From: a virus
Lineage: Duplodnaviria > Caudoviricetes
DNA: 41,381 nucleotides
Virus record (IMG/VR): IMGVR_UViG_3300022178_000578
Span: 1-41,381 of that record
Strand: one strand, 5' to 3'
The position numbers and the translations under genes were made by a program. The notes under the pieces were generated by a model that had not been told where the DNA came from, ran no database searches, and saw only the letters and a list, made by a program, of their open reading frames with translations. This document shows, piece after piece, positions 2,578 through 41,381 of the stretch. Positions within the stretch are counted from its first letter, which is position 1; every line of letters begins with the position of its first letter.

Positions 2578-2579
2578 CA

Positions 2580-5172: not shown

Positions 5173-5200
5173 TTGTATATAGAGTGTTCGGTGTTATGAT
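5173..5200 (+). promoter_or_regulatory. Sigma70/SigA-type promoter, probably leaderless
   Basis: TTGTAT, 16 nt, then TATGAT with extended TG; 6 nt to ATG 5207; no SD. Confidence 0.7.
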
Positions 5201-5206
5201 TACCAC

Positions 5207-5497
5207 ATGAGCAAAGATAAGAACATAAACATACCAGAGCTTATAACAAAAGCGTATGGTAAAAAACAGGGAGGGGTTACTGCTTGGTATAAGGCAGTAC
5301 CTAACGAAGTCAAACCATTCATTGAGGGTATAGAGCTACTTGTTAAAGAGGGTAAGAAACCTAATTCAAGTGCAGTCAGCAGAATACTACAAGAGGAATT
5401 TGACTTTACAATATCTAGGGCAGGTATCAACAGGTGGCTAACATACTTAAAAGATAAGGAAACTAATGAGAAAAAGAGAGCAGGAGAAACTAGCTGA
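5207..5497 (+). CDS. Putative HTH DNA-binding protein
   Basis: SSAVSRILQEEFDFTISRAGINRWL resembles a winged HTH. Confidence 0.65.
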   Translation: MSKDKNINIPELITKAYGKKQGGVTAWYKAVPNEVKPFIEGIELLVKEGKKPNSSAVSRILQEEFDFTISRAGINRWLTYLKDKETNEKKRAGETS

Positions 5498-6518
5498 ACT
5501 CTTAGTACAAGCTGAGAGTGACAAAGTTAGTGAACTTAAAGACACTAATAAGAGATTGTTAAAACAATTAGACAAACTCAAAGATAAAAAAGCAGATTTA
5601 GTTGAGGCAGTATACAAAGGAGCTAAAGATGGTATGTCAACAGTAACATTACCAAAAGTTAAAGCACCAAAAAAATCTTCTACACATGGACAAGAAATCT
5701 GTGTGCCTTTATTAAGTGACATTCAACTAGCAAAAAACACAGACACATACAACTCTAAGGTTGCGTACAAACGTGTCATTAAATATGCAGAGAAAATCGT
5801 GAATCTCTCTCAGTTGCAGGGTGCAAACCACACTATTAAGAAGTGTCATGTACTAGCACTAGGGGATATAGTTGAGGGAGAATTAATATTTCCTGGACAA
5901 GCACACGAAATTGACAGTTCACTTTACAAACAAGTAACAGTTGATGGACCTGCTATGTTGTTTGAGTTCTTTAGTATATTACTCACACACTTTGAGGAAG
6001 TTGAATGTACTTGGGTTATAGGTAATCATGGTGCATTAGGTGGCAGGGCTAGAAAAGATTACAACCCTGAAACTAATGCAGATAGAATGCTAGGCAAGAT
6101 TCTAGAAACTATGTTTAGGAACGAGCCAAGAATGAAATTTCATATACCTGATAGAAGTTGGTATACGATAGCAGACTTAGGTGTCAAAGCTAAGTTCCTA
6201 TGCTTTCATGGTGACAACATTCGTGGCAGTATGGGATTACCTTTCTATGGATACAATAAAAAAATACTAGGTTGGAAAGCACTAGCAAGTGCAGACTTGA
6301 TGGAAAACTTTACACACGCAGTGTGTGGTCACTATCATACACCGACTTCTTTGTATCTTAATGATGTAAGACTATGGGTTAATGGCTCTACTGAAAGCCA
6401 CAATGGTTATGCATTAGAACAATTAGCAGCTATGGGTAGACCATCACAATTCTGTTTGTTTGTTAAACCCTCTAAAGGTGTGACTGCTGAATACTTAGTT
6501 AGTTTAGAGGAGGGATAA
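5466..6518 (+). CDS. Calcineurin-like metallophosphoesterase with N-terminal coiled coil
   Basis: Motifs SDIQ, GDIVEG, GNH, FHGD, GHYH. Confidence 0.9.
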   Translation: MRKREQEKLAELLVQAESDKVSELKDTNKRLLKQLDKLKDKKADLVEAVYKGAKDGMSTVTLPKVKAPKKSSTHGQEICVPLLSDIQLAKNTDTYNSKVAYKRVIKYAEKIVNLSQLQGANHTIKKCHVLALGDIVEGELIFPGQAHEIDSSLYKQVTVDGPAMLFEFFSILLTHFEEVECTWVIGNHGALGGRARKDYNPETNADRMLGKILETMFRNEPRMKFHIPDRSWYTIADLGVKAKFLCFHGDNIRGSMGLPFYGYNKKILGWKALASADLMENFTHAVCGHYHTPTSLYLNDVRLWVNGSTESHNGYALEQLAAMGRPSQFCLFVKPSKGVTAEYLVSLEEG

Positions 6519-6520
6519 AT

Positions 6521-7405
6521 ATGGACAAGGAAAAACACAAGAAATTAATTAAAGACTTCCCTAAGAGTGTTGTAAAGAAAGCTCCACAGGGAAAATTTGG
6601 GGACTATGTTCCTCACCACATATACACACAACGATTAGTAGATGTAGTACCAGGCGAATACAACTTTATGTTTACTGAGATTAGAGATAAAGACAATTCA
6701 ATAGTAGGTGCTAAATGCACACTACAAATAGATGGCTTAGGTATGGTCGAGGAAGTTGGAGATGTAGATACTAACGCATTAAAAAGAAATATTACTGAAA
6801 GCGAAGTGCTAAAACTAGCAGTATCAGATGGTATAAAGAGATGTTGCATGAGATTCGGAATCGGATTAGAACTATGGACAGGTGGTACTACTGAAGAAGA
6901 ACACTATGCAAACGATACTACTGAAAAAAAACAGGCACCTAGCGTGGTGAAACCAGTTTCAGCTCCAGTTAGAACAGATGCAGACAAGTCGCAGGACAGC
7001 CTTTCTCCTGCCGTTGAGACCAAGACTTCCTCTGCATCGCCTAGTAATCCAGTAGAAATTCTAAAGGCAGCCAACTTCTCAACAGTAGGTAACACTCATC
7101 CTAAGGGTGGGTCTAAGGCTCTTGATGAATTAGGTTTATGGTGTATGTGTGGAGGAGATGTCGAATACATACCAGAGGGCAAGAAAACAAATAGCAAAGG
7201 TCCTGACTTTAGATGTCAATTGATGGGTAACTGTACTGCAGGAGATACAGTAGATGGCAGAGTATTTGCTAAGTCCTGGTGGTTAGCAGACTTTAAGAAA
7301 GAAACACCTGCTGCTTGGATTAATTATGTACAGGCACTTAATGGTGTAGTAATGCCAAAGGCTAAGAGTTTAGATGAAGTAGAAGATTGGGAAGCACCAT
7401 TCTAG
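6521..7405 (+). CDS. Rad52/Sak-like single-strand annealing protein
   Basis: AVSDGIKRCCMRFGIGLELW signature; C-terminal Cys domain (CMC...PDFRC...C...SWW); SSB-like acidic tail DEVEDWEAPF. Confidence 0.85.
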   Translation: MDKEKHKKLIKDFPKSVVKKAPQGKFGDYVPHHIYTQRLVDVVPGEYNFMFTEIRDKDNSIVGAKCTLQIDGLGMVEEVGDVDTNALKRNITESEVLKLAVSDGIKRCCMRFGIGLELWTGGTTEEEHYANDTTEKKQAPSVVKPVSAPVRTDADKSQDSLSPAVETKTSSASPSNPVEILKAANFSTVGNTHPKGGSKALDELGLWCMCGGDVEYIPEGKKTNSKGPDFRCQLMGNCTAGDTVDGRVFAKSWWLADFKKETPAAWINYVQALNGVVMPKAKSLDEVEDWEAPF

Positions 7406-7542
7406 GATACTATTTAAACACATGCATTGATTGCTTTAGAACATATTGGCATGAGGTACAGGCTTATCAGGGTTTATGTAAACAATGTGAAACAGCATTT
7501 GGAGAAAGGATGAATGATGTCGCAAAAAGAAATAGTAGCTGA
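7387..7542 (+). CDS. 51-aa Zn-ribbon microprotein (not in ORF track)
   Basis: TTG start overlapping the annealase end; CIDC...CKQC; fills the intergenic gap. The start is uncertain. Confidence 0.65.
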   Translation: MGSTILGYYLNTCIDCFRTYWHEVQAYQGLCKQCETAFGERMNDVAKRNSS

Positions 7543-7777
7543 ATTATTAACTGACAATAGACAAGGTGTGTGTGGTACAACCTTCTTACAAAATTACATA
7601 CCACGATTCGGTAGTCTTATATTTAATCTTAGACACGAAAAGAATTGGGACATAGTTAAAGAACGTTGCGATTTACACGAACATAAAAATACCCAATGGA
7701 AGTATAGGTTATTGCGTAGTGACACTACTAACTACAATGTAGCAACAGGTCATACTTATTCTTTTAATTTAGATTGA
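7514..7777 (+). CDS. Winged HTH protein (HTH_39-like)
   Basis: IPRFGSLIFNLRHEKNWDI resembles the RL.ARI.DLR..G..I phage HTH pattern. Confidence 0.7.
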   Translation: MMSQKEIVAELLTDNRQGVCGTTFLQNYIPRFGSLIFNLRHEKNWDIVKERCDLHEHKNTQWKYRLLRSDTTNYNVATGHTYSFNLD

Positions 7778-7780
7778 TTA

Positions 7781-7966
7781 TTAACTAATTTTTTTCTTAG
7801 CGTATGTCTTAACGACTGCAAGTGCAGCACCACCACCAGCTAATGCAGCTAACTCTAATGTATTTGCATCAACAGATATCAAAGGTGCGACAACTAAAGC
7901 TCCAAGAAATGCTTCAATGAAAGTCCATACGGTTCTTTCAATCATATCTTTAAGTTCTTCACTCAT
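7781..7966 (-). CDS. Holin, r1t-like
   Basis: ERTVWTFIEAF motif, two hydrophobic helices, basic tail, adjacent to the putative lysin. Confidence 0.85.
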   Translation of the reverse strand: MSEELKDMIERTVWTFIEAFLGALVVAPLISVDANTLELAALAGGGAALAVVKTYAKKKIS

Positions 7967-21080: not shown

Positions 21081-22202
21081 TTAGCTATTTGTTTGTTCAA
21101 ATAGCAAGTGATATGAAGGAGGTCCGAAATCGAATCCCATCTCCATATAAATTGCTTTACCAACTCTTGCATTAGCATCTTGGTCAATGTCTCTTACGAA
21201 CACAGTTCCATATCCTGGGATATTTGTGAATACTGGTTGTATAAAGGCAAGGTCTAAGATGTAAGCAGTTCCTGAAGGCATGATATTAGGGTCAATGACC
21301 ATCATACCAATAGAACCAAATGGTGTAACAACTGTATCAATGTCGATACCTGCAACGTTTCTATCCCTTGGGATAATTGCTGCAGCTAGTCCAATGGTAC
21401 CTTTAGCTAGTTCTTTGTTAAGAGCTAACAATTGTTTCGGTGTTACCACCAATACAGGTTGTTTCATTGGAGCATGAGCATCATACAATCTCTTCATGCC
21501 GTCTGCTATTGCATCCCATGTGAGGTCACGAGCTGCAGATGTTGCATCTCCGTCACTGTCACAATAGTGAATGTTACCACCAACATATGTTGGAGCTACT
21601 GTATTGTTAGCATTTGCATTAAGACCAATCCATTGTTTAAGTCCACGCATTTCACGTGTTCCTGAACCTGGTGTTGTATTAGCACCGTCTGCGAATGTTC
21701 CGTTAAAAGCGAACCATTCTACTTCTCTTGCTACTTTCTCCATTGCTAATTCTAATTGATTAGCAAATTCGTCTGTTACTGGGTTACCACCAAAAAGACC
21801 TAGTTTGTCTCCTGCTGTGACAGTACCGTCTCCGTCTGAGGAGTTGGCAATGTTTGCAGATAAGTCAAATGGATTTTGGTTCATGTAACTTGCTAAAGCT
21901 GTGTATGTCATTTGTACACCTTTATGGAAAACTTGTGTTGCGAAAGTGTAAGCTACCCTATCGCGACCTAAGTATTCTGTTGGAGCTGCACCTTCTTGAC
22001 CTTTAGTAGGTTCTGAAGATACAGTTGCATTATCAGCTGCTTGGATTTGAAAGAAGGTTGACTGTATAGCCTTGCCTCCATTTAAACCACCTGTGGCTGA
22101 TAAGAAAGGTGTCCTTTGACCACCAACTTTAAACAATTCACCAGTAAAGTTATTAATATTCTGAGCATAAATGCTACTGTTTGTTAGGGATATTGCTCCC
22201 AT
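21081..22202 (-). CDS. Major capsid protein (HK97 fold, SU10-MCP-like)
   Basis: TPFLS, EG..A, TQVFHKGVQMT, REMRGL, TPFG motifs; follows the scaffold gene. Confidence 0.85.
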   Translation of the reverse strand: MGAISLTNSSIYAQNINNFTGELFKVGGQRTPFLSATGGLNGGKAIQSTFFQIQAADNATVSSEPTKGQEGAAPTEYLGRDRVAYTFATQVFHKGVQMTYTALASYMNQNPFDLSANIANSSDGDGTVTAGDKLGLFGGNPVTDEFANQLELAMEKVAREVEWFAFNGTFADGANTTPGSGTREMRGLKQWIGLNANANNTVAPTYVGGNIHYCDSDGDATSAARDLTWDAIADGMKRLYDAHAPMKQPVLVVTPKQLLALNKELAKGTIGLAAAIIPRDRNVAGIDIDTVVTPFGSIGMMVIDPNIMPSGTAYILDLAFIQPVFTNIPGYGTVFVRDIDQDANARVGKAIYMEMGFDFGPPSYHLLFEQTNS

Positions 22203-26274: not shown

Positions 26275-27981
26275 TTAGTTTCCAGGTTGGGAACTGATAT
26301 TGGCGAGGCTACCCATAAGGCTAGCAAAAGACTTCCTATACTGTGCATCTGCTTGACTCCCTGTAATAATATCTCCATAAGTATTTCTCATAAAGTCATT
26401 GAAACTGTTAGCCATAGCTGCATCTACATTTACTTCTCCTTCTAATTGACTAGGAGTAAATTGTGAACTCATACCAAGACCAGCATACTTTCTTCTTTTT
26501 CTTGCATCTTCTAGTTCAAGTTGCATGTTCCTTTGTCTTATATCAAAGTTTTGTTTTTGTAATGAATAGTCTTGTTTAGACCACCAATCAAAGTATTGTT
26601 GCAACTCTCCATCAGATGCAGGTCTACCTAAACCTTCTGTTATTGCATTTGATATTACATTTGTTGCATTTGAAAAGTTTGGTTTAGTATATTGAAATAT
26701 ATTCTGGTATGCGTTTTCTCCACCAAAGCCAGGTTCGAAAGCACCAGTACCATAACCGTAGTCTGATAAAGTATCTTTAAAGTTTTCTTTTAAGAATACA
26801 TTCATGTTTGCTGCTGTACTACCAGGTGCCAATAATATACTAAACAAATCCTGCCTAGCCATACCATCACCATTTAAATTAAACCTTGACATAGCTGACT
26901 CTATAGCTTCTATTGTTCCACCTGGATTGTTATCTAGCACTCCATAAACAAAAGTAAATGGTTGTAAAAATCCTGATTCAACTAACAACAACTGAGTATC
27001 CATTATGTCTTCAGGTGATGCATTAGCAAACAAAGAAGTACCTAATCCTGTCTGGTATAAAGGCATAGTACCTTGCCCAGTATCTTCGCTATACACATCT
27101 AAATCAAGTTCACCAACACCGTAGTAATCTGTTTCTCCAAAATACTGTTTTGCTCGAATCTGTTCTTGTTGGTCTGGACTTGTTTCTTCTGGTCCAAAAA
27201 TCCCAGCCATAGATGTTGGGTCAGCAATTCCTTTGTTTATAAAGTCTATTACATAGTCTTCACCGTATTCAGCATCTATAATGTTTTCTATTCCAGCTAT
27301 GTACTCTTGTGTAGTTATCTCATCGTTGTCTAGTTTATCTTGTAATTCTTTTGCACTATCAAAATTTATAGCTTCAGCTGCTACTTTTATGTACTCTCCG
27401 TCTTTGGCTTCTTTACCTATCTGTGCTTTGTAGGCTAAGTCAGCTTGGTCTGTATAACCTGCTGATATAGCTGTACCTACTATGTCACTACTTATGTGCT
27501 GTAGTTCTTCTGGCAGTGTACCTTTTTCATGTAAATCAATAAGTACATTAGCGTTTTCTTTTATCTGAGAAGCAGCTTCTGCTGATGTTGGATTATTATA
27601 TGCTAATGATTCATAAGTAAAATTAATTGCGTCTTGCATATTTGGTGGCATCTCGTCCCAAGGTATACCATAAACAGCTTCAGCGTATAGATGATACTCA
27701 GCTAAACTTATATCAGGTGAATCAAATGTACCTTCTGGTTCCATTCCACCACTTGTTCTTGCACCTAAATAATTTTTAACATTAGTTGCAAATTGTCTTA
27801 CAAACTGGTCATTTCCTAAAAAGAATATACTTAGAAAATCATTAAACTTTTCGTCATCAAAATCTTTTGATTGAAAACCATCTCTTGTTGCACCAAATGT
27901 AAATCGACCATAGCCGACTTCTACTTTAGGACCACCTAAAATATCATCAATAACTGATTGCTCTTCTTCTGTATACGCCAT
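26275..27981 (-). CDS. Probable internal virion protein with possible peptidoglycan-binding motif
   Basis: DIMDTQLLLVESGFL...G....GTIEAI resembles PG_binding_1. Confidence 0.6.
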   Translation of the reverse strand: MAYTEEEQSVIDDILGGPKVEVGYGRFTFGATRDGFQSKDFDDEKFNDFLSIFFLGNDQFVRQFATNVKNYLGARTSGGMEPEGTFDSPDISLAEYHLYAEAVYGIPWDEMPPNMQDAINFTYESLAYNNPTSAEAASQIKENANVLIDLHEKGTLPEELQHISSDIVGTAISAGYTDQADLAYKAQIGKEAKDGEYIKVAAEAINFDSAKELQDKLDNDEITTQEYIAGIENIIDAEYGEDYVIDFINKGIADPTSMAGIFGPEETSPDQQEQIRAKQYFGETDYYGVGELDLDVYSEDTGQGTMPLYQTGLGTSLFANASPEDIMDTQLLLVESGFLQPFTFVYGVLDNNPGGTIEAIESAMSRFNLNGDGMARQDLFSILLAPGSTAANMNVFLKENFKDTLSDYGYGTGAFEPGFGGENAYQNIFQYTKPNFSNATNVISNAITEGLGRPASDGELQQYFDWWSKQDYSLQKQNFDIRQRNMQLELEDARKRRKYAGLGMSSQFTPSQLEGEVNVDAAMANSFNDFMRNTYGDIITGSQADAQYRKSFASLMGSLANISSQPGN

Positions 27982-30900
27982 TAAATATCTCCTCCATAGT
28001 AACTTACTTCTTCTTCTATCTCTACTCTGAATACATCAAAGTACATAAAGTAAAAGTCTGGATTTTCTAACATTACTTTGTTTGCTACTCCTCGAAGATA
28101 AGCTCTAGATTCTTTAGCTTCTGCTCTACTTAATGTAGCATTTAATCCATACTCTGATTTTATTACATTCAATACCCTTTGTCTTGCTGTTAAGTATTTA
28201 ATGATTCCTTTCATTGCTGACATATCTTTTAACTTCTGAGTAGTACCATCAGGCATTGTTATGGAAGTATCGCCTTCTCTTTGTATCATTTCAGTAAGTT
28301 GTTTTATTTTTGCATCAGTAGATAACGAACGTGGTGCTGTTGATGTATCTCCATATCCTTGAAACTGTTGTTGTAGTTGTAGTCTTATTAGATATAGTTG
28401 TTCTACTCTTTTCTGATATGGCAAGTTTGCATACATAGGTCCGTCCATTATTACTCTTCTAGCATGTTCATAAGCCAAACTTCCTTGTGCTTGTCTTACA
28501 GCTTGTTTATATTCTTCAGGACTAAGGTTAACTCTATCTCCATCAGTGAATGCATTATTCCATGCTTGAAAATTAAATTCATCTAAAGGACTATCTGGAT
28601 ACATGTAATATGCAACATCAGGGTATTCTTTAAATACAGTTTCATTAAGTTGTTTAAAGTATCCTCCATCATCTGTAAAAGAAACTTTCTTAATTTGTTT
28701 TGACTTAGAAGTCAATAAAGCTGTAGGGTCAAAACCAAATACCTTGATAAACTGTGCTATTGCAATAACTCTATCTCCACCTGACTTAGCTAACATCTGA
28801 TAATATGCATCAGCTAATAGTGTTTGTGCAAAGTATTTACCTTCTGGGTCTTCTTCTTTTGCTTCTATTGGGTCTAGATAAGCTCTACCACCTGGTCCAA
28901 TTTCATAATCGTATTGCAATATAGCACCAGTAGGAGCTATGAATTGTATAAACGCTCTATGTAAAAGACTTTGTGTAGCTAATTTTTTTGCTTTTTCTAA
29001 TGAAGCTACTTCTTGTTCTGGTGTAGAGTCATCATAAGACTGTGTCATAAACATAGCTCTTTGAATTTCTTTTACAGTATTAGCATAACTTCTTTGAAAC
29101 TCAGCATCCATTGAGTCACCAGCTATAATGACTTTTCTAAACCAACTAGGCATAGCTTGTTTAGCATAGTATATAGGGTTTGCCATTTCTTTTAATCCGT
29201 CTTCTGGTCTGCCGTATGGAAAGAAAACTTTATCTACATCAGGAGTAGAAGGTAAAATAGCACTAGCAGGTATCTGTGCCAATGGTCCTAAGCCAGGTAC
29301 AATGTCTCCTGCTACCATATTTAAGCCACCAGCATATCCTCTTAACTTAGTATTAATATCAGGTATCTCTGTAGTTTGTTGACCAGTTATAGGATTAATT
29401 CCTGCTTCATCACCTTCAGGATTTTTAAGACTGTTATCAATATTAAATATATTTTCAAACCAGTTCATGTTATACATCTCTTCACCAGACTGTGGGTCAG
29501 TTGTAAAGAATCCTTCGTCTTCGTACTCACCAAACAAACTAGGTTTACGCATAGCTTCTATACTTCTTTGTGCTTTTCTACCAAATAAAGTCTTTTGACC
29601 TCTAAGTAATCTTGTCCAAGTACCAGCAATTTCAAGATATACTTCTGCGAAAGGCATAGCTAGTCTTACCATGTCTGTAATAACATGTCGTTTATTTAAA
29701 TCGTACAGTAAATCTTTTGTTTCTGTTAGAGCAAATGCTTTGGCTAAGTCATCAACTTGTCTTAAATCATCTACTCCTAGTAATTTAGATACATCTGCCT
29801 GTTTCATATTCTCTAAACTCTTTATATATTTTCTAGCTCTACTGCCTGGTAATGAATTACCCATCATCTTTTTTGCCTGACCTAATACCTGTACTCTTGC
29901 AACGTCATCTAGATTTGCATACATGTTTTCCATAAACTTCCAATAAAATTGTCTAAATGCTGGTGAACGTGATAAATCATTTGTAGTTGAACCCATTAAT
30001 CCTGAGAACAATGTTTCTAAAACTTTGTCATATCCACTTGCAAAGTCACCTGTTGTGTCAGTTCTTGATGCTTTAAAGTGATGTGTGTCACTCCATACTC
30101 CACTTTTATTTTTTTGTAACCATGCTCTATATTGTTTATGTTGCGACTCTGACATCTCTCTAGTAAATTTAATGTTCTGCGTTTCTCCAGCTTTATTAGT
30201 TATAGATACAAATTCATTAGATTCTTTAGCAATGTGACTAATTAGTTCTTCATCTCCAGCTTGTATAATGGTATATTCAATAATATTGTTTTCACTTTGT
30301 ATGTTAGGTTTAATAGAGTTTTCATCCCAAACATTTCCTACAAATTTACCATCAGGTGTTTTCTCTACAGCTCTATACCTACCACCAGTTTTATCATGTA
30401 GTCTGGCAACAATAGAATCTATATAAGAATCTGCATGTACTTTACTACTTGTTATTAAGTTTTTAGTATATTTTGATTGTTCATCAGAATTAGAAACAAA
30501 CGATTTTCTCCATTGACTTAAATCACCATCCCAAAATCTTTTTTTGACTTCATCAATTTGTCTATTAAATTCTTCTCTACCTCTTACAGGATTGAACTCT
30601 ACTCTTGCTATAGCTGTAGCTAATGGGTCATCTGCTAGTTGTAATAACTCCTTAGCACCAGCACCATAGAATCTTTTGTCACCTTTAGTTACTTGTGTAA
30701 AACCTCTAGCTCTCTTTGGGTCAAAGCCAAGAGTCATACCCCCATGAGATTGCGTTAGGGCTTGTTGATGTCGCATAGCAAGTTCTAATGATTCATCAAA
30801 TATATCTGTACCACCTCTACCTAGATTCAAGGTATCAGCTAAGTAATCATCTCTTAATAGTTTTCTTTGGTCTTTAAGAATACCTGCTCTTTGTGATGGC

Positions 30901-33900
30901 TTTCTACCTAGAACCCAAGCAAATGCAGAAAGAGGGTGAGCAAATGCGTTATCTAAATCTGCTGCCCACATACGCAGTTGTTCTTCACCTACAACTCTTA
31001 CAACCCATGCAGGTCTTAAAAGAATACTAGGTTTCCATATACGTTGCATGTATCCATCACCTACCATTGTAAGTAATCCTTCAGTAAGGTTTACTATTTC
31101 TTCGTCATCTGCAGTTTTCTTTACATTTACTCTTGATTTTTTAACAAGTAGTTTTAAACTTTCAAAGAAAGTTCTATCATCTTTTAAAGCTAACTCAGCT
31201 AAATCTGTTATTGGTTTTGCTAATAGTCTTTCATAATCAGCATCATTTAAATTTTTACCTCTACCAGTTAGTCTTAAACCTAAATCTCTCATAGGTCTAA
31301 AGACTCTTATAAACAATCTTGCATCAGGCATTGGTATATGACCTTGGTCATAATATTCAGATATTAAATGTGCTGTTGCTTTAGGAACTTTATTTACTTG
31401 TACTCTTTTAGCTAAGTCTTTATTGTTTGCTATTTCATCTGAAATATCTTCAACTAAACTTCTTAGTTCTTTAGCTGAATATACTGATTCTTCACCAGGT
31501 TTTATATTGTTGATAGCATCATCAATTGCAGTCTTTACATTACCTAATGTTATGTTCGGCTTAAATACTTTTTGTACAAAGAATATATCTTCCATAGCTG
31601 TTTTAAGCAATGCTTCTTCTGCACCAGTAAATTTACTAGGACCAGAAACATTAAGTGATTTTACATTATTAATTTCTGCAAACCTTTGTATTTCTTCTGA
31701 TTGTTTTTTTGTAAGACCTTTTGATAAATCAACTACAGCATAAGGTTTATGTCCTTGATATACACCTGGTTTTAATCCTTTAATACCTTCTTCAATAACA
31801 TGAGTACCTTTTTCCAAGTAGTTAATAACTTGTTTAATACCTTGACCACCTTTATTAGCACCAGTAAATATAATTGTCATATCAGCATTGTCTAAGTTGT
31901 ATCTAGATACTCTACTTATTTCTTGTTTGTCTAGTTTCATTGTTGCAAAATCTTGGTCCCAAAAGTCTTTGTCATAAATCTTTTTCTTATCTAGTTCTGA
32001 TAAACCTTTAAAGGCAGGGACAACATCATTAACTTGATTTGTCAAGTCACCTATTTGTTTGTCTATAGCTGTTCTATCAGTAAGGGCATTAGATAATTCA
32101 TCTTTAGTAGATTTAACTGCTTCATCTAATTGTTGTGCAATTGCGTCTTTAGCTTCTGCTGTAGTTGTACCAGGAAATTCTTTTTTATATTTTGTAACAT
32201 TTTCTGAATTTGGTTTATATTGTTTACTTATCTCATCAACTTGTGTTTTTAAAGAAGTAATTTTTTCTGTTATGTTTCTTGTTTTACTTTCTAACCCATC
32301 AAGTGTTTGTATCTTTGTATTAGTTTTAAGTCTTATTCTTCTAGGTAGCTTTGCAACTTCTTCACCTACTTCTTCTAATGCACTTTGTCTAGCGAGAGAA
32401 AGGTTTTTTAATTGTGCAGCTTTATCTGTATCTGACATATCTGTCAAACCTAATTCTTTCATTCTTTGTGAAACATCAGTACCAGACTTACCTCTAAAAC
32501 CATAAGGCACACGACCACCTGTTTGTATACCTATTTCTTCTGCTATGTCTAATGCAGCTTTCTCAACACCTTCATAGTATCCACCTGTAACGTACTCTAC
32601 TAATGCTCTATCTTCTGGTGTAGTAATATTTCCTGCTATCTCTTTAATGTCACTTAGTATTCCATCTAGCTCATTAGTATCTACTTGATTTGATTTTTTG
32701 TACTTAGCTAATACTTTAGATACAATTCCTAAAGCCTCATCATCAGTAAGTTGTTCAGAAAAATATGTATCAAAAGGTAAATCTTCTATCTTGCTACCTG
32801 GAAAGTATTCAAGTTCTCCAAGTTGGTTTGTAAAATACATTCTAGTTTCATCAATACTTGCCATCCATTTGCTTATGCCTTTTTGTAATTCTTTAGGCAA
32901 ACCTATATTTTCAAATTTTTCACCAATATGTTTTTGTACATCATTCCATATATCTAAAATGTCATTCATGTTTCTTACACCTTGTGCTCTATCTACGGTA
33001 TCTATACCTTTTTGTGTAAGAGCTAGGTCTGCTATTCTATCTAAAGCAGGTTCTGCTATTGCATCATCTACTCTCGCATATCTCATCCAATCTTGTAAAT
33101 CAAAAAACGACTGATTAAAGTCATTGACATAAAGTTTTGGTGCAGGAAATGTTTCAAACAATCTACCTACAGCAGTGTTATTTAAATTTTGTCGTATAGC
33201 CCCAGACAAGCCTACGGCTTCTCCTAGTTCTCCACCGACCATACCACCTAATTTAGATGACACCTTGCCTCTGAATATCATAGATGTTGGGTTTAGTTTC
33301 TTAGTAATCTCTCCTGCTTCTATTGCACCAACTAATAAATCTTCTACATCTTTAGTTGTCTTAGCTTGTTTAATATTTCTATGTAATACAGCATCAGCAC
33401 CACTACTACCTCTTTTACCTAGTAATCTTTTTATAGTTCCATAATCATCTGCTTTGACTAATTGATTAACAATCTTTCTACCTCCAGCAGTTCTTGTTAC
33501 ATACTCAATAGCAGAAGGAACATGTACTGTTTTTCTTACAGCTTTGTCTATTATTCCAGCACCTTTTAAAACATCACCTTGTGATAATGACCTAGTAACC
33601 TTGCCACCTTTTGACAAATAACCACCAACTAATATTGTTGGGTCAGCTAGCAATGTAAATGCACCATCAACAATACCTGTTGCTACATTGTATGACCTTG
33701 AACCAGGTTCTAGTACATTAGCAAACATAGGGGCTGCAGGTGTTAATTTAACCGTACCATTCTTAGATTGTATAGTTAGTCCTTCGTCTCTAGATTGTTC
33801 TTGATTAGTTATATCTTCACCGTAATAAGACTGAACTATCTTCTTTACTTCTTCTGGGTCAGCACCTCTACCAACCATTTCTTTATATATATCAGTATTC

Positions 33901-34481
33901 TCTGCTAATGTAGAGTTACCAAAAAATCCTTCACCTAGGTTTACCTTTTCACCTGCAAGAGATTTCTTTATTGCATCTCTACCAACAGAAGGACCTAACA
34001 TTTGTCTAGTCTTTTGCCATTCGCTCTGTGCTTGTTTGTCAAATAATAAAGAAGATGCAGCTGCAACAAAACCTTGACCGTCACCATGCTTTCTATCATT
34101 AAGATATTTTTGTGTAGCTAACATAGGTTTCTTTACTAACTCATCTTGAAACGAATCAAAACCAACAAATGCGGTTCTTACAGCACCTTTACCTGCATTC
34201 TTAGTTCTATCCCACCAAGTCTTTTCTACATCTAACCAACGCTCTACTAAAGGAGCTAACTCTGGAGATTCTGTAGTAAGTCCCATCAAAGCAGAACCAA
34301 TCAATATATCTTTAGGTAGATAAAAGTTTTCTGAAATAAGTCCTTTGAGGTTTGCAGCAATACCAGGATTAGATTCTAAAGCAGTAACAAGTTGTTCAGC
34401 TTGTACAAATCTTTCTTTTTGAGTTTCTTCTTCTAAATTCTCTGTGTGAGGAGGTTGCCACCACCATCTAATTTCTGCCAT
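27981..34481 (-). CDS. Giant probable ejection (polyvalent) protein containing a split cpYpsA/SLOG domain
   Basis: 2166 aa; motifs TGGYYEGVEKAALD, TGGRVPYGF, NLDNADMTIIF, KPYAVVDL, LNVSGP. Confidence 0.75.
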   Translation of the reverse strand: MAEIRWWWQPPHTENLEEETQKERFVQAEQLVTALESNPGIAANLKGLISENFYLPKDILIGSALMGLTTESPELAPLVERWLDVEKTWWDRTKNAGKGAVRTAFVGFDSFQDELVKKPMLATQKYLNDRKHGDGQGFVAAASSLLFDKQAQSEWQKTRQMLGPSVGRDAIKKSLAGEKVNLGEGFFGNSTLAENTDIYKEMVGRGADPEEVKKIVQSYYGEDITNQEQSRDEGLTIQSKNGTVKLTPAAPMFANVLEPGSRSYNVATGIVDGAFTLLADPTILVGGYLSKGGKVTRSLSQGDVLKGAGIIDKAVRKTVHVPSAIEYVTRTAGGRKIVNQLVKADDYGTIKRLLGKRGSSGADAVLHRNIKQAKTTKDVEDLLVGAIEAGEITKKLNPTSMIFRGKVSSKLGGMVGGELGEAVGLSGAIRQNLNNTAVGRLFETFPAPKLYVNDFNQSFFDLQDWMRYARVDDAIAEPALDRIADLALTQKGIDTVDRAQGVRNMNDILDIWNDVQKHIGEKFENIGLPKELQKGISKWMASIDETRMYFTNQLGELEYFPGSKIEDLPFDTYFSEQLTDDEALGIVSKVLAKYKKSNQVDTNELDGILSDIKEIAGNITTPEDRALVEYVTGGYYEGVEKAALDIAEEIGIQTGGRVPYGFRGKSGTDVSQRMKELGLTDMSDTDKAAQLKNLSLARQSALEEVGEEVAKLPRRIRLKTNTKIQTLDGLESKTRNITEKITSLKTQVDEISKQYKPNSENVTKYKKEFPGTTTAEAKDAIAQQLDEAVKSTKDELSNALTDRTAIDKQIGDLTNQVNDVVPAFKGLSELDKKKIYDKDFWDQDFATMKLDKQEISRVSRYNLDNADMTIIFTGANKGGQGIKQVINYLEKGTHVIEEGIKGLKPGVYQGHKPYAVVDLSKGLTKKQSEEIQRFAEINNVKSLNVSGPSKFTGAEEALLKTAMEDIFFVQKVFKPNITLGNVKTAIDDAINNIKPGEESVYSAKELRSLVEDISDEIANNKDLAKRVQVNKVPKATAHLISEYYDQGHIPMPDARLFIRVFRPMRDLGLRLTGRGKNLNDADYERLLAKPITDLAELALKDDRTFFESLKLLVKKSRVNVKKTADDEEIVNLTEGLLTMVGDGYMQRIWKPSILLRPAWVVRVVGEEQLRMWAADLDNAFAHPLSAFAWVLGRKPSQRAGILKDQRKLLRDDYLADTLNLGRGGTDIFDESLELAMRHQQALTQSHGGMTLGFDPKRARGFTQVTKGDKRFYGAGAKELLQLADDPLATAIARVEFNPVRGREEFNRQIDEVKKRFWDGDLSQWRKSFVSNSDEQSKYTKNLITSSKVHADSYIDSIVARLHDKTGGRYRAVEKTPDGKFVGNVWDENSIKPNIQSENNIIEYTIIQAGDEELISHIAKESNEFVSITNKAGETQNIKFTREMSESQHKQYRAWLQKNKSGVWSDTHHFKASRTDTTGDFASGYDKVLETLFSGLMGSTTNDLSRSPAFRQFYWKFMENMYANLDDVARVQVLGQAKKMMGNSLPGSRARKYIKSLENMKQADVSKLLGVDDLRQVDDLAKAFALTETKDLLYDLNKRHVITDMVRLAMPFAEVYLEIAGTWTRLLRGQKTLFGRKAQRSIEAMRKPSLFGEYEDEGFFTTDPQSGEEMYNMNWFENIFNIDNSLKNPEGDEAGINPITGQQTTEIPDINTKLRGYAGGLNMVAGDIVPGLGPLAQIPASAILPSTPDVDKVFFPYGRPEDGLKEMANPIYYAKQAMPSWFRKVIIAGDSMDAEFQRSYANTVKEIQRAMFMTQSYDDSTPEQEVASLEKAKKLATQSLLHRAFIQFIAPTGAILQYDYEIGPGGRAYLDPIEAKEEDPEGKYFAQTLLADAYYQMLAKSGGDRVIAIAQFIKVFGFDPTALLTSKSKQIKKVSFTDDGGYFKQLNETVFKEYPDVAYYMYPDSPLDEFNFQAWNNAFTDGDRVNLSPEEYKQAVRQAQGSLAYEHARRVIMDGPMYANLPYQKRVEQLYLIRLQLQQQFQGYGDTSTAPRSLSTDAKIKQLTEMIQREGDTSITMPDGTTQKLKDMSAMKGIIKYLTARQRVLNVIKSEYGLNATLSRAEAKESRAYLRGVANKVMLENPDFYFMYFDVFRVEIEEEVSYYGGDI

Positions 34482-36712: not shown

Positions 36713-38626
36713 TTATCTCCAGGGTATTTCGTTCCAGTCCATGGTATCATACTTATCGTAACTTGGTGAGTAATCATAGGACATATCTTCATAAGTTAAT
36801 CTTGTTAAAGTTCTTACAGTTTTCATAGGAAACCAAGAAGCCATCACTACATCTGATGCAATTGCCCTACTAGTACCCTGTCCTTTAGAGGCAAAGTATG
36901 TTAATTGTTTAGTATAAAGTATTGATTTAGATATAGCTTCATCATCTCCAAATGGCAAAGTAATAATACCTTCTTGAAACATAGGTGCTAATGATGTTAC
37001 ACCAAACTTTTGGTCCCACTTGTTTTTATGTGTTTCATGTCCTTCTAACTTAATACCTTGTGAAGCAGCAAATTTTTTAATTCTATCATCTTGTCTAATT
37101 GCTTTTTGAAATCCGTTCTCTTCTATAACCCAGTGATAACAACCATATCTGTCATACCATTTCTTAATAAGTTCCAATGCTTCATCTAGACCACCACCTT
37201 GGTGGTTTTCTAAATCAACCAATGTTAACTTAGGTTTGTTATCTTCTGTTTCTACTGCCCATAAGAATCCTGCTTGATAGCCTGTTGCAGCAGGGTCAAG
37301 TCCAGCAACTAGGTAACTACCTTGTGGAATGTAACCTAGTGGTATTGATGTGTCGTAACATTTTTCTATAATCTCTGGATTAAATATATTTAGTCCTTCT
37401 GCCATAGCTTTATTCAGATAAACCATCTCAAAGTTTTTTAACCCACCTGTAGTAAGTGCGTCATTTTTTCTATTCATTAACCATTTAAAAGTTCTAAAAC
37501 TACTCCACAACATACAGTCAACATGTTTCTCTTCGTCAAACTCTGCTAGAGAACACATGCTGTCATGTGCCTCTTCTACTATTGTTTCCCATGCATTGTT
37601 GTTTAACAAAGCAGAATATAAATCTTCAGGGTGTTGTCTAGAGCCAATAAGAACCATAGCTGTATGTTCTTCTTTTCTTGAACCTAATGTAGTCGTCCAC
37701 CATTGTTTTGTATTTTCTCTTGACTTAGGTTGCATAGTAGAGCTGTGGTCTTCAATGTCATCTGCAATAATTATGTCACAGTCTCTTGATAAAATCTTAC
37801 CACCTCGTCCAATACCTATCATTGTAGGTGACTTGATACCAGGTATAGTTCTAGTAGCAACAGTAAATTGATTTTGTGACCAAGACTTACCTGTTCTGTT
37901 AGCTGGTTTAAAATTACCACCTGGTCCACAATAGGCTTCTTTAAGTTTATCATTGTTATCTAATGTATCCATAATTGATGATACAGAGTTTTTAGCTATG
38001 TCCTCGTTACCACCTACCCACATAATTCTCATATTAGGGTTTGTGCATATAAGCCAAACTACAAAATGTATAAGAAGTTCTGTCTTGCCATGTCTAGGTG
38101 GAGAGAGAATCATTTGTTGTCCACCTGTGTCAATAGCTTTTATAATTGAGTCTATCCACACTTTGTGAAAATCTGCTGTCTCAAACAGTTCACCTTTCTC
38201 TGTTTGGAAATACATATCTCTAAAATCTTGAAAGTCTTTTTCTGCTTGTAAGGTAGCTTCTGATTTCTCCCAGCTTTGTGTTGCTGCTGCCTGTTGTATA
38301 TCTTCTTGATAAGCACCTAGTAATCTAGAAATGTGTGCTGGTGTGCAACCTAACAACTCTGCTATCTCTTTACGTTTCATATTGTTATTAATTAAATCTA
38401 GTGCATAACCTTCTTCTACAAATTTGTCATACAACGCACCTCTTCTAGTTGTAGCTACTTGTGTTTTGTTAATTGATTTTTCTTCAGGTTTATATTCACG
38501 ATTAAGTTTGTCTGCTCTATGTACTCTTTTTTGTTCTCTCCACTTGCATGTATCAGAACAATATTTTCTTTTACCTTTTGATAATGAATTTGTACATTCA
38601 GGAGAAACGCAAACTAAATTTGGCAT
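36713..38626 (-). CDS. terL: Terminase large subunit with N-terminal Zn-finger and HTH
   Basis: Walker A PPRHGKT, Walker B IIIADD, coupling motif IGSR, nuclease GLDPA and IEENGFQ. Confidence 0.93.
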   Translation of the reverse strand: MPNLVCVSPECTNSLSKGKRKYCSDTCKWREQKRVHRADKLNREYKPEEKSINKTQVATTRRGALYDKFVEEGYALDLINNNMKRKEIAELLGCTPAHISRLLGAYQEDIQQAAATQSWEKSEATLQAEKDFQDFRDMYFQTEKGELFETADFHKVWIDSIIKAIDTGGQQMILSPPRHGKTELLIHFVVWLICTNPNMRIMWVGGNEDIAKNSVSSIMDTLDNNDKLKEAYCGPGGNFKPANRTGKSWSQNQFTVATRTIPGIKSPTMIGIGRGGKILSRDCDIIIADDIEDHSSTMQPKSRENTKQWWTTTLGSRKEEHTAMVLIGSRQHPEDLYSALLNNNAWETIVEEAHDSMCSLAEFDEEKHVDCMLWSSFRTFKWLMNRKNDALTTGGLKNFEMVYLNKAMAEGLNIFNPEIIEKCYDTSIPLGYIPQGSYLVAGLDPAATGYQAGFLWAVETEDNKPKLTLVDLENHQGGGLDEALELIKKWYDRYGCYHWVIEENGFQKAIRQDDRIKKFAASQGIKLEGHETHKNKWDQKFGVTSLAPMFQEGIITLPFGDDEAISKSILYTKQLTYFASKGQGTSRAIASDVVMASWFPMKTVRTLTRLTYEDMSYDYSPSYDKYDTMDWNEIPWR

Positions 38627-38841
38627 TATTCTTCTTCAGCTAATTTGTTTGCTTCTTCTACCATAACTATCATGTTGTAGTTATAATCATCTACGAATTT
38701 TTCTATAAGAGTATCTATCTTAGATGTGTTAGGTTTTTTATCTATTATAGGGCTACCGCATGCTGCAGATAACTCCATTGCCCATAATTTTAAATCTTCA
38801 GGTTTTACAAAAATATTTTTTTGTTGTTTTATTTTTGCCAT
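38626..38841 (-). CDS. Hypothetical protein
   Basis: 71 aa, TAATG coupled on both sides. Confidence 0.75.
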   Translation of the reverse strand: MAKIKQQKNIFVKPEDLKLWAMELSAACGSPIIDKKPNTSKIDTLIEKFVDDYNYNMIVMVEEANKLAEEE

Positions 38842-38963
38842 TATTTTTTCTTTATTTTTTTTACTTTGCCATTAACTGTTCTAGCATATTTATGTGTTTT
38901 AGTTTCTCTTATTAAAGTACCGTAGTGACGCTTGCCACCCCACATCCAACTTACTTTTGCCAT
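38841..38963 (-). CDS. 40-aa basic microprotein (not in ORF track)
   Basis: MAKVSWMWGGKRHYGTLIRETKTHKYARTVNGKVKKIKKK. Confidence 0.75.
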   Translation of the reverse strand: MAKVSWMWGGKRHYGTLIRETKTHKYARTVNGKVKKIKKK

Positions 38964-38964
38964 A

Positions 38965-39231
38965 TTACCACTTTACCTTATTTGCCCAGTAAGCTGCAGA
39001 CATCTTACCTTTTTTAATATTCTTAGCGTGTCGTGCTTTAAAAGACTTTCGTCTTGCTTTAGACTTCGCATCAGTCTTCTTACCAGCACCAGATACACCT
39101 TGTTGACCAAATCTAATGAGTTTAATTTTGTCACCTTCTTTAGCTAGGACTGCATGTGACTTACTAGCTTTAGGAGTTCTCTTAGGTTTATTGTACCCTG
39201 AAAACTTCTCACCTCTATATTCAATAGCCAT
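38965..39231 (-). CDS. Basic phage protein
   Basis: GYNKPKRTP...IRFGQQG...RKSFKARH...SAAYWA..KW, a motif recalled from aquatic phages. Confidence 0.85.
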   Translation of the reverse strand: MAIEYRGEKFSGYNKPKRTPKASKSHAVLAKEGDKIKLIRFGQQGVSGAGKKTDAKSKARRKSFKARHAKNIKKGKMSAAYWANKVKW

Positions 39232-39362
39232 TACTTTTTAGGTTTCTTTTTATATAGTCGTTTACTATTTTTAGTATGTTTCTTGCCAGAATGAATCTGA
39301 CCGTTAGGCATCTTATGATGAGCTCCTTTATACTCTTTACCTGCTTTTGTATACACCTTCAT
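39231..39362 (-). CDS. 43-aa basic His-rich microprotein (not in ORF track)
   Basis: MKVYTKAGKEYKGAHHKMPNGQIHSGKKHTKNSKRLYKKKPKK; GAGG SD. Confidence 0.75.
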   Translation of the reverse strand: MKVYTKAGKEYKGAHHKMPNGQIHSGKKHTKNSKRLYKKKPKK

Positions 39363-39364
39363 TT

Positions 39365-39436
39365 TTAATACATGCCTCGTTTAGTCTTCTTCTTTGCACT
39401 GTATTTTTTCTTCTTGCCTTTTTTGCCTATTGGCAT
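39365..39436 (-). CDS. 23-aa Lys-rich peptide (not in ORF track)
   Basis: AAGGAG SD; MPIGKKGKKKKYSAKKKTKRGMY. Confidence 0.65.
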   Translation of the reverse strand: MPIGKKGKKKKYSAKKKTKRGMY

Positions 39437-39554
39437 CATATCTCCTTAGTTTCTTATTGTACTCTGTACAACCTAGATTAACACATTTCTTATGTTTATC
39501 ACTAATTTCTAGTTCTCTTTTGCAACTCTTACAAATTGTTACGAACTTGCTCAT
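39381..39554 (-). CDS. 57-aa Zn-ribbon protein (not in ORF track)
   Basis: CKSC...CVNLGC; TAACAT lies 7 nt before the ATG, no SD. Confidence 0.65.
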   Translation of the reverse strand: MSKFVTICKSCKRELEISDKHKKCVNLGCTEYNKKLRRYDANRQKRQEEKIQCKEED

Positions 39555-39595
39555 CTAAATAATGTTAGACACATTTAACCAAGATTTCACCATTC

Positions 39596-39623
39596 TTGCA
39601 TATATAAACTTTACTGTTATAGT
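39596..39623 (+). promoter_or_regulatory. Promoter of the candidate ncRNA
   Basis: TTGCAT, 16 nt, then TATAGT with extended TG; same layout as the 5173 promoter. Confidence 0.65.
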
Positions 39624-39629
39624 TAACCT

Positions 39630-39860
39630 ACAAACATATTTTAATAAGGTATTTACAGGTAAAGGAGCTATCGGACGGCTGAAAGCTAGATACTTACAAC
39701 TAAGTAAGGACTGGGATTACCACAAGTCTAGTACCCAAGGATTACAATTTATTAAAATTTCAAAAAATTTACACACACATGTCCGCTAACGCCCTACAAG
39801 ACATACACATAAAGAAACACTACTCCTTTAAAAACAACTTTTAAAGAGTTGTCTTTCTTT
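39630..39860 (+). ncRNA. Candidate structured ncRNA
   Basis: Promoter upstream; nested helices 39660-67/39823-30 and 39672-77/39780-85; internal hairpins; terminator-like hairpin 39834-52 followed by CTTTCTTT. Confidence 0.55.
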
Positions 39861-40328
39861 CCCATTACTGTTAAAGTAGGACATAGTGAACGGTGGTGTA
39901 GTTTCACAACTATACCTTCCTTGTCGTGTAATATACCTGCTACGCCACTATTCACCTAGTACAAATTACCACATAATTTCTAAGGACTTACGTACTATAT
40001 ATAGGGGGGTGCCAGGTTAAATCCCCCCTCATGCACGCACACGCCTGCATAATGCGTATGCATATATAGGGAAATCTAAATCTAAAGTTTACATCTAGAT
40101 TATGCCCTTATGCGTATATATGCCCCTATGTGTCCCACGCTTGAATGAAAATACATTCCCATGCATTGAAACGCTTGTAAGATTCTCACGCCCTTACGCG
40201 TAGGAAAACAGAATCAAACTCTCCAGGAAAAAAACAAGCTCACAAAGTTTTCAAATAAAAAAGCTAATTGAAACCTAGCTAAAACAGAAAAGCGATCTCC
40301 AGCCGAACGACTCATGAATTTTTGGTGC

Positions 40329-40357
40329 TTGACAAGTTTGGGCAGGTCGATTAAGTT
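40329..40357 (+). promoter_or_regulatory. Strong host-type promoter
   Basis: TTGACA-17 nt-TAAGTT, followed by hairpin GTCCGAAA / TTTCGGGC (40370-40390). Confidence 0.75.
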
Positions 40358-40410
40358 TGATTTCAACAAGTCCGAAAAAACATTTCGGGCATAACGAAAA
40401 GGGGCATCTA

Positions 40411-40824
40411 ATGTCAACTAAAAAAGAAACGATTCGGGAGGATTTATTCCAACCTTATCGCACTAAATTCGGGGCGTACGTTGTTGTGAAAACACGAGGT
40501 AGCATATCCGAAAAATACGATAAAGAATCTGAGGGAAAAACTCGTTATATTATATGCGAGCTATCCGAAGGAAACTACAAGCCATTGGGCGTTTTAAAGC
40601 AATACGAGGCAGTAATCCAATTCAAAGAATTGATGAATTTAGCCCCAAATCCTTTAAATCGTAAGGCGTTAAAACCATTGAAAAATGGTCAGATGTCAGC
40701 CGAATTTATGAGCTTGATTGGTAGCAATAAAATTGCTAATGAATTCGAGGGAAAAGTCCCAACGATTCAACAGTCTAAGGCGTACATGAATTCTAAATTC
40801 AAGGGTAGCCCACTAGATTACTAA
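40411..40824 (+). CDS. Orphan basic protein (137 aa), monocistronic
   Basis: AAGGGG SD then ATG 40411; has its own promoter and terminator. Confidence 0.8.
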   Translation: MSTKKETIREDLFQPYRTKFGAYVVVKTRGSISEKYDKESEGKTRYIICELSEGNYKPLGVLKQYEAVIQFKELMNLAPNPLNRKALKPLKNGQMSAEFMSLIGSNKIANEFEGKVPTIQQSKAYMNSKFKGSPLDY

Positions 40825-40875: not shown

Positions 40876-41381
40876 TCCATTCCCCTATGCATTATGCATA
40901 CATTCGCGATATCTCAAAACACGTCCCTTAACTCCTAACATTCACCTAGTTTGCTATCTGAGAGCCTCGAGGTTGGATTCTAAGGGGGGGGAGTCGTTCA
41001 AGTGGTCGACTGTTGCACGATTCAAAATACTATGCCTTAAATCGCCTTATTTGAGCTTACAGAGGAAAAGCCCTATTTCATTGGGTTTCGCCCTATATTT
41101 CATTATATCACATACGCCCCTATATATGTAATGAAATTTATTTTTTTTTATCCCTGAATATTCGCGATATCCCCCTATGCAGACCTAAACATATGCATAT
41201 ATAGGTGAACATTTCTCAGCTCTACTATATATGGTATGCTTATGCATATCTATTATGCATAATGTTTATATATATAAATGTGAACATTTCTCAGCTCTCT
41301 TAATTTTATGCATAGGTAGAGATTTCTCCTTTGCATACTCTATATAGAAAAAAAACTTTGAACTTTTTTTTTGTATATTTA
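40876..41381. repeat. Non-coding repeat-rich region
   Basis: GTGAACATTTCTCAGCTCT at 41205 and 41280; ATTCGCGATATC at 40902 and 41160; many TATGCAT and CCCTAT motifs. Confidence 0.85.

Follow-up and report, generated by a model that had tools for sequence, protein, structure and literature searches.

A conserved pseudoknotted RNA in the divergent gap facing the terminase gene of uncultured marine phages

Genome setting and transcription signals of RNA-1

The window, by which we mean the whole 41,381-nt stretch of phage DNA that was analyzed (a virus record of 41.4 kb, 99% complete), is organized in two arms, with late genes on the minus strand and early genes on the plus strand, and the predicted noncoding RNA described here (RNA-1) occupies the gap from which they diverge. 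The late arm encodes the major capsid protein (21081-22202, minus strand) and a large terminase of 637 aa (terL, 36713-38626, minus strand; PHROG 38, E 3e-67), which is head to head with RNA-1 and whose closest annotated counterparts, 24-27% identical, are those of Streptomyces phages. The window belongs to what we call type A; in types B and C, RNA-1 directly faces terL. The N-terminal segment of the terminase exhibits a Cys4 zinc-ribbon-like motif, with four conserved cysteines, and a helix-turn-helix, the latter giving weak matches, below cut-offs, in 14 of the 15 aligned members. This N-terminal module (38222-38626, minus strand) evolves fast and is mosaic relative to the ATPase, and its predicted fold (pLDDT 69) has no Foldseek match at E 0.001. 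It is possibly a fused small terminase, and no separate small terminase was recognized among the scanned ORFs of the window.

The early arm (1-7800 and 40357-40824, plus strand) encodes a pair of AAA ATPases, an exonuclease and a Rad52-like annealing protein, and no DNA polymerase, primase or helicase was recognized among the 46 scanned ORFs of the window. Tiny, very basic ORFs, reshuffled between relatives, occupy the interval between terL and the RNA locus (38841-39554, minus strand). The virion arm includes a 2166-aa protein (27981-34481, minus strand) with a short SLOG-like match and otherwise no family, for which relatives carry counterparts of 2000-2200 aa. Two 32-nt direct repeats, 88% alike and 75 nt apart, are found at 41192-41298, and the noncoding end of the window contains many ATGCAT/ATAT palindromic words.

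RNA-1 itself (39630-39862, plus strand) is a predicted transcript of ~233 nt that runs from a conserved ACAAA start to a pyrimidine tract, and we infer its transcription and its ends from promoter and terminator motifs only. The predicted promoter P1 (39596-39623, plus strand) consists of a -35 element, TTGCAT (39596-39601), a 16-nt spacer and an extended -10 element, TG-T-TATAGT (39615-39623). A generic scan did not list it because its -35 element matches at only three of six positions. Among relatives, an extended -10 element 4-13 nt upstream of the conserved ACAAA start was found in 48 of 71, against 3.1 expected by shuffling, which bears out the plus-strand promoter that a preliminary description of this DNA, made from the letters alone, had placed here. 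The length of about 230 nt proposed in that description stands as well, as does its closing hairpin followed by a pyrimidine tract, which is present at 39834-39852 and is weak (-5.7 kcal/mol, z -2.2). This predicted terminator (39834-39862, plus strand) is an 8-bp A-U-rich hairpin plus the pyrimidine tract; the generic scan did not list it in the window, and type-A relatives have a comparable hairpin with a U-tract at the same position. In type A, 225-257 nt separate the start of RNA-1 from the next promoter, and most type-B RNAs end earlier.

Twelve sequencing runs, eight of them recorded as RNA, hold part of the stretch as contigs only, which carry neither strand nor transcript ends. The four deepest RNA runs, all from one study, extend over silent DNA as well as coding parts (29 of 30 bins covered in the best two) and look like DNA carry-over. 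In four RNA runs from other studies, short contigs lie over RNA-1 and RNA-2 (see below) at a depth of 2-3, having been selected by the query.

Structure, covariation and distribution of the RNA-1 family

Relatives of RNA-1 were gathered first via the neighboring protein and then via increasingly loose DNA patterns, in IMG/VR and metagenome contigs. We obtained at least 136 distinct full-length sequences of types A and B, and at least 202 distinct cores once type C is included (64 A, 84 B and 54 C among the matches listed), with sizes of ~185-240 nt across the family. One loose pattern returned, beyond the known set, mostly chance matches in coding DNA, and five chance coding loci were left out of the RNA-1 set by name. 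The relatives are marine metagenomic phage contigs. For the alignment, we used 72 type A and B sequences at <95% identity, with a mean pairwise identity of 59%; the covariance model R1 gives the RNA-1 of the window 148 bits.

The architecture that emerges comprises two nested junctions, with helices P3 and P4 at the first and P5 and P6 at the second, all on the plus strand. Helix P1 (39638-39654 with 39740-39758, or 9-25 and 111-129 when numbered from 39630) is a long basal stem with internal loops: three of its five inner pairs show changes on both sides, and its outer A-U stem is present in the fold of the window and was recognized by eye in relatives. Helix P2 (39658-39661 with 39732-39735; 29-32 and 103-106), which adjoins a conserved 3x4 internal loop (ACA/CRAG), is 100% paired in all 72 sequences with an interchange of A-U and G-U (45/27); a further change from G-C to A-U, in type C, was seen first in an unselected model match and later gathered by a pattern that fixed it. 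Hairpin P3 (39666-39680; 37-40 and 48-51), which is 91% paired and has changes on both sides in three of its four pairs, presents a 7-nt loop (39670-39676) that holds the 5' strand of a pseudoknot. Helix P4 (39686-39691 with 39726-39731; 57-62 and 97-102) closes the three-way junction with P5 and P6, and five of its columns show 100% pairing over the 202 cores among the matches listed, with as many as five types of pair. For the variable hairpin P5 (39693-39708, pairing 39693-39697 with 39704-39708) and the small hairpin P6 (39712-39722), the alignment from one subtype to another is poor (59% and 67% paired, respectively), and support within subtypes is by eye. The 3' strand of the long-range pseudoknot (39781-39785; 152-156), preceded by a poorly conserved linker of 35-60 nt, pairs with 39672-39676 in the P3 loop. 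Three pseudoknot columns switch between G-C and A-U in concert (167/25, 188/5 and 149/44 in 193 cores among the matches listed), and the pairing is also kept in a further, GC-rich variant. The core is compact, ~90 nt plus the pseudoknot, and some of its junction bases never vary; what is invariant and unpaired consists of short A-rich words in junctions and loops, and a long conserved unpaired guide is absent.

As a single sequence, RNA-1 folds only modestly better than shuffles (z -2.3), and Rfam and ARAGORN returned nothing, so we relied on a comparative test, and the case for RNA-1 stands on covariation. In the 72-sequence alignment, from which the structure itself was derived and in which cells count sequences rather than independent events, 85% of cells are paired, versus 70.5% in shuffles, and 17 of 31 pairs show changes on both sides. 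The covariation score for these 72 relatives, collected with search patterns in which several conserved blocks were fixed, is 0.386, versus 0.139 when shuffled and at most 0.099 when slid. RNAalifold, run without a given structure, recovers P4 and the pseudoknot helix. G-U cells greatly outnumber A-C cells (480 versus 13 in the 202 cores among the matches listed), which identifies the plus strand as the folding strand.

All the sequence words named in the preliminary description are present about where it placed them, and its structural model survives in part. The closing helix it had drawn, TAAAGGAG/CTCCTTTA, has both arms in just one of the 72 relatives, the window itself, and is missing from the minimum-energy fold, and its GCT-GAA-AGC hairpin is possible in five of 72. 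The pairing of CGGACG with TGTCCG was correct to the extent that CGGAC/GTCCG covaries; it is not a nested helix and corresponds instead to the pseudoknot between the hairpin loop and the 3' tail. In the proposed ACTGGGATT/AAGTCTAGT helix, the 3' arm pairs instead with CTAGAT to form P4, which covaries in four of six columns. The TACTTA/TAAGTA hairpin is real, with its register shifted to 39693-39697 with 39704-39708. The basal stem, P2, P3, P4, P6, a second promoter and a second small RNA (39865-39960) were absent from that description.

Does the locus encode a peptide instead? The window ORF that overlaps RNA-1 (39562-39789) has 75 codons and no PHROG or Pfam match, and its frame is open across the core in five of 72 relatives, whose core lengths fall in all three classes modulo 3 (16/15/41). 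A conserved peptide starting at an ATG in the pseudoknot strand was rejected, as frames differ and type C has no ATG there, and no conserved frame was found 3' of the pseudoknot. Conservation therefore tracks base pairs and not the codons of ORF 39562-39789, the reverse of what, according to the preliminary description, would have refuted its proposal. With covariation in the collected homologs, no conserved ORF and a promoter motif of its own, RNA-1 is well supported as the stand-alone, structured plus-strand noncoding RNA that had been proposed, and it is very probably a real structured RNA.

A pattern search of GTDB contigs gave five matches, two of them chance matches in coding DNA and three on phage contigs binned into MAGs; an Actinomycetota MAG contains two related contigs, and a Gammaproteobacteria MAG one. 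Model R1 matched one of 65 genomes of the MAG's order, and model R2 matched one of 151 genomes at the level of the class and one of 151 at that of the phylum, in each case only phage contigs of the same MAG among genomes that are incomplete. No copy was found in the cellular chromosomes searched, and among the genomes searched so far RNA-1 is viral only. A GC-rich variant on a high-GC contig (L480:1038-1131, minus strand) has a further compensated pseudoknot, suggesting that the family extends to phages of other hosts. An actinobacterial host is only suggested, by terminase kinship, a MAG bin, leaderless starts and one GC-rich variant, and WhiB is absent from all six genomes tested.

An exchangeable slot, a second small RNA and a downstream element

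The place occupied by RNA-1 is an exchangeable slot. Of 80 terminase relatives, 43 have at least 2,800 nt upstream, and among these the slot holds RNA-1 in 28 and an unrelated structured RNA of ~200 nt, RNA-1', in 15, and is never empty. RNA-1' (for example L705:2420-2635, and also in L567, L568, L577, L589 and L606) occurs in 25 IMG/VR stretches, is flanked by the same promoter and the same terminator as RNA-1, and has hairpins and loop-loop pairs that covary across 16 sequences with two main alleles; it matches neither model R1 nor model R2, and has no Rfam match. RNA-1' phages are nested among type A on the terminase tree (support 98/98), with terminase ATPase domains 89-94% identical to those of type A, and the slot stays head to head with terL across 58-100% terminase identity. 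The N-terminal module of the window terminase is closer to that of RNA-1' phages (53-60% identity) than to that of other type-A phages with RNA-1 (44-49%), and hence does not covary with the RNA family.

Behind the terminator lies a second predicted promoter, P2 (39865-39877, plus strand), whose extended -10 element is TG-T-TAAAGT; the two promoters, P1 and P2, are identical over 12 of 13 nt. All 35 type-A loci that extend far enough have such an element, as do three of 35 type-B loci. It would drive RNA-2 (39883-39960, plus strand), a predicted hairpin RNA of ~80-90 nt with unpaired pyrimidine-rich seeds (fold z -4.0). Type-A RNA-2s are built on several unrelated scaffolds, and 31 of 35 share a CCTGTA[AG]C seed that is complementary to the invariant 5' core of RNA-1; in 17 of the seed-bearing loci the late leader has no matching word, and 14 RNA-2s add a second complement, of 7-8 nt, to the P6 region. 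In the RNA-1' clade, the seed is altered to match RNA-1'. A further match of RNA-2s is to the first late gene, at its ribosome-binding region or its first codons; within the clade of the window, RNA-2 and the start of that gene change together over four allele sets. In the window, TACCTG (39934-39939) faces RNA-1, and 39914-39922 and 39951-39956 face the first late gene start. The single matches are 7-11 nt long and often within chance (p 0.00-0.54 per locus), the duplex in the window is weak (rank 59 of 4136), and the target of the seed in RNA-1 is paired within helices P1/P2. RNA-2 is likely, from these complementarities, to be an antisense partner of RNA-1 and of the first late gene start, although the words shared by RNA-2, RNA-1 and late leaders could be direct-repeat DNA sites. 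The preliminary description had considered RNA-1 as an antisense regulator of a late leader, an idea that does not hold for RNA-1 and fits RNA-2 downstream. RNA-1 points away from the late genes, and some late leaders have a word in common with it in the same sense; we rejected it as an antisense to late mRNA, since conserved complementarity was not found and the complement sits in RNA-2.

The first late gene is reduced to a remnant (39587-39601, minus strand; four codons, then a stop) in the window and near-identical relatives. In close relatives it is intact, encoding a predicted nuclease, and is apparently leaderless; in one relative it has a weak Pfam NOV_C match (E 7e-4, below cut-off). 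In this region (39555-39601, minus strand), some relatives carry a SET-domain or SNase-domain gene beside the first late gene.

Further downstream, at 39966-40070, a TTACCA element leads into an AT-rich stretch and hairpins, one of them G6/C6. TTACCA is present downstream in all 72 relatives, ~30-50 nt past the pseudoknot in most of type B and 160-210 nt past it in type A, and in type B the TTACCA zone is followed by long inverted repeats. Contig ends are commoner on the downstream side of RNA-1 (60, versus 30 on the upstream side; p 0.002), at scattered rather than sharp positions. The element is a possible genome-end, packaging or origin signal.

Relation to known RNAs and possible roles

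RNA-1 matched no Rfam family, in keeping with the undescribed RNA that had been suspected: Rfam gave no match in the window at gathering score, three chance matches, all outside RNA-1, in 39200-40400 at E 10, and none for RNA-1 in three divergent loci or in six genome stretches. BLAST against 50,697 annotated phage records produced only short chance matches, and model R1 had no match in Streptomyces phage FlowerPower, which carries one of the nearest annotated terminase relatives (24% identity). No description of RNA-1 was found in the literature, where an unnamed listing is possible in large candidate catalogs that are not readable in full. RNA-1 motifs and six contig names are not in the accessible part of the files of one catalog of 10,000 phage RNAs (PMC10690425), in which a listing is possible. 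RNA-1 may be an unnamed entry in that catalog, in the supplement of PMC5737381 or in COMPASS (bioRxiv 10.64898/2026.10.21.760802), to go by their accessible portions. RNA-1 most probably represents a new class of structured RNA, which belongs, by its covarying structure, lack of a conserved ORF and own promoter motif, to the known general kind of stand-alone structured phage noncoding RNAs of unassigned role. It is neither a tRNA nor a tmRNA, as already stated in the preliminary description: ARAGORN finds no gene and there is no conserved tag frame. No Rfam model of a known riboswitch or self-cleaving ribozyme matched, and for SRP RNA, RNase P, group I intron, hammerhead and c-di-AMP riboswitch, whose layouts we compared, the helix order differs and Rfam gave no match.

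Several phage RNAs offer partial parallels. Going by the accessible text of PMC5066667, phi29 pRNA is likewise a phage noncoding RNA of similar size, with multiway junctions, long-range pairing through loops, a structured domain at the 5' end with a linker, and packaging functions as neighbors. The differences are several: RNA-1 has no Rfam match, whether at gathering score or with E relaxed to 10; pRNA comes from a ~20-kb terminal-protein phage (same partial source), whereas the RNA-1 phage has 41.4 kb, a 637-aa terminase and no recognized DNA polymerase; pRNA has one three-way junction and complementary CE and D loops, RNA-1 two nested junctions and a pairing between loop and distal tail; and RNA-1 is exchangeable for another fold. 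Membership in a packaging-type (pRNA) class, one of the suggestions in the preliminary description, thus fails on the features tested. Cluster A mycobacteriophages make an abundant, stable and host-toxic noncoding RNA from an early promoter at the genome end, as reported in the accessible sections of PMC5712189. Like RNA-1, these Pleft RNAs (L5, D29, StarStuff) are the first early-strand unit, near the genome end, with a host-type promoter, precede the first early gene and have no assigned function; they differ in being ~500 nt long, processed, host-toxic and shown to be expressed, and a conserved structure, which RNA-1 has, is not described for them in those sections. ROOL and GOLLD are, in the accessible text of PMC12286853, phage-borne, covariation-defined RNAs with loop-mediated contacts, a variable linker and unassigned function, and in contrast to RNA-1 they are much larger (GOLLD often >800 nt) and often near tRNA islands. 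With ~185-240 nt against a size of >500 nt, and no Rfam match, RNA-1 falls outside this group, and ARAGORN found no tRNA genes in the RNA-1 phages examined.

An RNA polymerase decoy akin to 6S or Ms1 had also been proposed for this locus. 6S RNA forms a rod with paired ends and a central bubble. RNA-1 is comparable in size range, long basal stem and possible polymerase partner, Ms1 binding core polymerase according to the accessible part of PMC6582537. It differs in being viral only among the genomes searched, in its branched pseudoknotted core and in ends that do not pair with each other: its 5' end pairs with positions 111-129, and its 3' 100 nt consist of tail, pseudoknot strand and terminator. 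Together with the lack of a match to RF00013 or RF02566, this speaks against membership on the features tested. P1 c4 and P4 CI are phage antisense RNAs with short seeds. Their counterpart here would be RNA-2, not RNA-1, since it has two short unpaired seeds matching sites of the same locus; it differs in having no Rfam match and in that one of its predicted targets is itself a noncoding RNA.

We tentatively favor, as a plausible reading that may well be wrong, an action of RNA-1 in trans, by its folded shape, on a conserved partner, probably host machinery. RNA-1 would be transcribed on the plus strand from its predicted host-type promoter and, during infection, its folded shape would bind this partner, probably a host polymerase, ribosome-associated or defense protein. 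In type A, including the window, RNA-2 would pair with the invariant 5' core of RNA-1 and with the first late gene start, and could time both. Shape is invoked because the invariant unpaired bases are short, A-rich and typical of tertiary packing, with no long guide; trans because RNA-1 has its own promoter and terminator and no gene under its control; and a host partner because an unrelated fold can replace RNA-1 beside a terminase ATPase that is 89-94% identical. Host machinery is preferred since RNA-1 is the first early-strand unit, as are the host-toxic Pleft RNAs of mycobacteriophages. Several points count against a host role. RNA-1 resembles no host RNA, so that no target of mimicry can be named; a slot that is never empty (43/43) and head to head with terL suits essential morphogenesis better than an accessory role; and the block that RNA-2 would impose on RNA-1 together with the first late gene hints at a late role.

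The main rival, possible and in our view rather unlikely, is a packaging or maturation cofactor that would bind terminase, portal or prohead as phi29 pRNA does, perhaps as an oligomer formed by pseudoknot pairing between molecules. The 35-60-nt linker would permit such pairing, and RNA-1' has covarying loop-loop pairs; RNA-1 is always head to head with packaging genes (against terL itself in types B and C), the slot is filled in 43 of 43, no separate small terminase was recognized, RNA-2 would repress RNA-1 along with the first late gene, and pRNAs themselves share only 12% sequence (accessible text of PMC5066667). However, the terminase is full length (637 aa), with a nuclease part and its own helix-turn-helix, and pRNA is found only in phi29-like phages, as far as the same text goes. 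Moreover, a different fold substitutes beside the 89-94% identical ATPase, the N-terminal terminase module follows the type of the downstream element and RNA-2 rather than RNA-1, and the RNA-1 promoter is on the early strand. We consider unlikely the fuller scheme of RNA-assisted packaging outside the phi29 group, in which phages that have an ordinary large terminase and lack a separate small one would employ a compact, swappable and maybe self-associating RNA as a cofactor of the motor or of initiation, with RNA-2 gating both this RNA and the first late gene in a timer made of RNA only.

Quite improbable, to our mind, is that RNA-1 serves mainly as a sponge for RNA-2, in an RNA-only early-to-late timer where RNA-2 would keep the first late gene untranslated and its titration by RNA-1 would lift the block. 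In favor of a sponge are the seed complementary to the RNA-1 core, present at 31 of 35 type-A loci (17 without the late-leader word), the second 7-8-nt complement in 14, the switch of the seed to match RNA-1' in the other clade, and the co-change of RNA-2 and late gene start in four allele sets; yet most type-B loci have no RNA-2 (second promoter in 3/35) and retain the whole fold, a sponge needs neither a pseudoknot nor two junctions, the seed target is paired in P1/P2, and matches of 7-11 nt are often at chance level (p 0.00-0.54). We give even less credence to an action in cis, whereby the transcript would make RNA polymerase pause or would modify it, or would itself become an R-loop primer, at the TTACCA/AT-rich element so as to start packaging or replication at the neighboring genome-end region. 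There is a precedent in T7, where polymerase paused at the concatemer junction recruits terminase (PMC3276506), both promoters aim at the conserved element, where contigs tend to break, and the 46 scanned ORFs include no recognized DNA polymerase, primase or helicase; against this, type A interposes a terminator, a second promoter and RNA-2, contig ends are scattered, and the 3' tail of RNA-1 is C/A-rich. A ribozyme or ligand-binding aptamer, such as a nucleotide-signal sink, would suit the compact ~90-nt core with its pseudoknot and invariant junction bases. It appears very improbable to us, since no Rfam ribozyme or riboswitch matched even at E 5-10, an RNA with a promoter and terminator of its own offers nothing obvious to cleave, no switchable terminator was seen, and the next early gene comes with a separate promoter-like site. 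Finally, it is extremely improbable that the conserved blocks are not RNA at all and belong instead to a small ORF or to sites on the DNA between divergent promoters: a 75-codon ORF does overlap in the window, but its frame is open in 5/72 and lengths vary across all frames, and nested and pseudoknotted covariation with a one-strand G-U bias is unexpected for duplex DNA sites.

RNA-1 adds a compact, well-covarying RNA class to an abundant lineage of uncultured marine phages, and is small enough for direct structure determination and pull-down. Its locus is also odd in that a small RNA is predicted to pair with both a structured noncoding RNA and the first late gene. The slot that is always filled, by unrelated RNA folds, amounts to a natural swap experiment on the role of such RNAs. 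Were RNA-1 a true packaging cofactor, pRNA would no longer be a feature of phi29 only; if, as we tentatively favor, it binds host machinery, it would represent an RNA route of host takeover or counter-defense.
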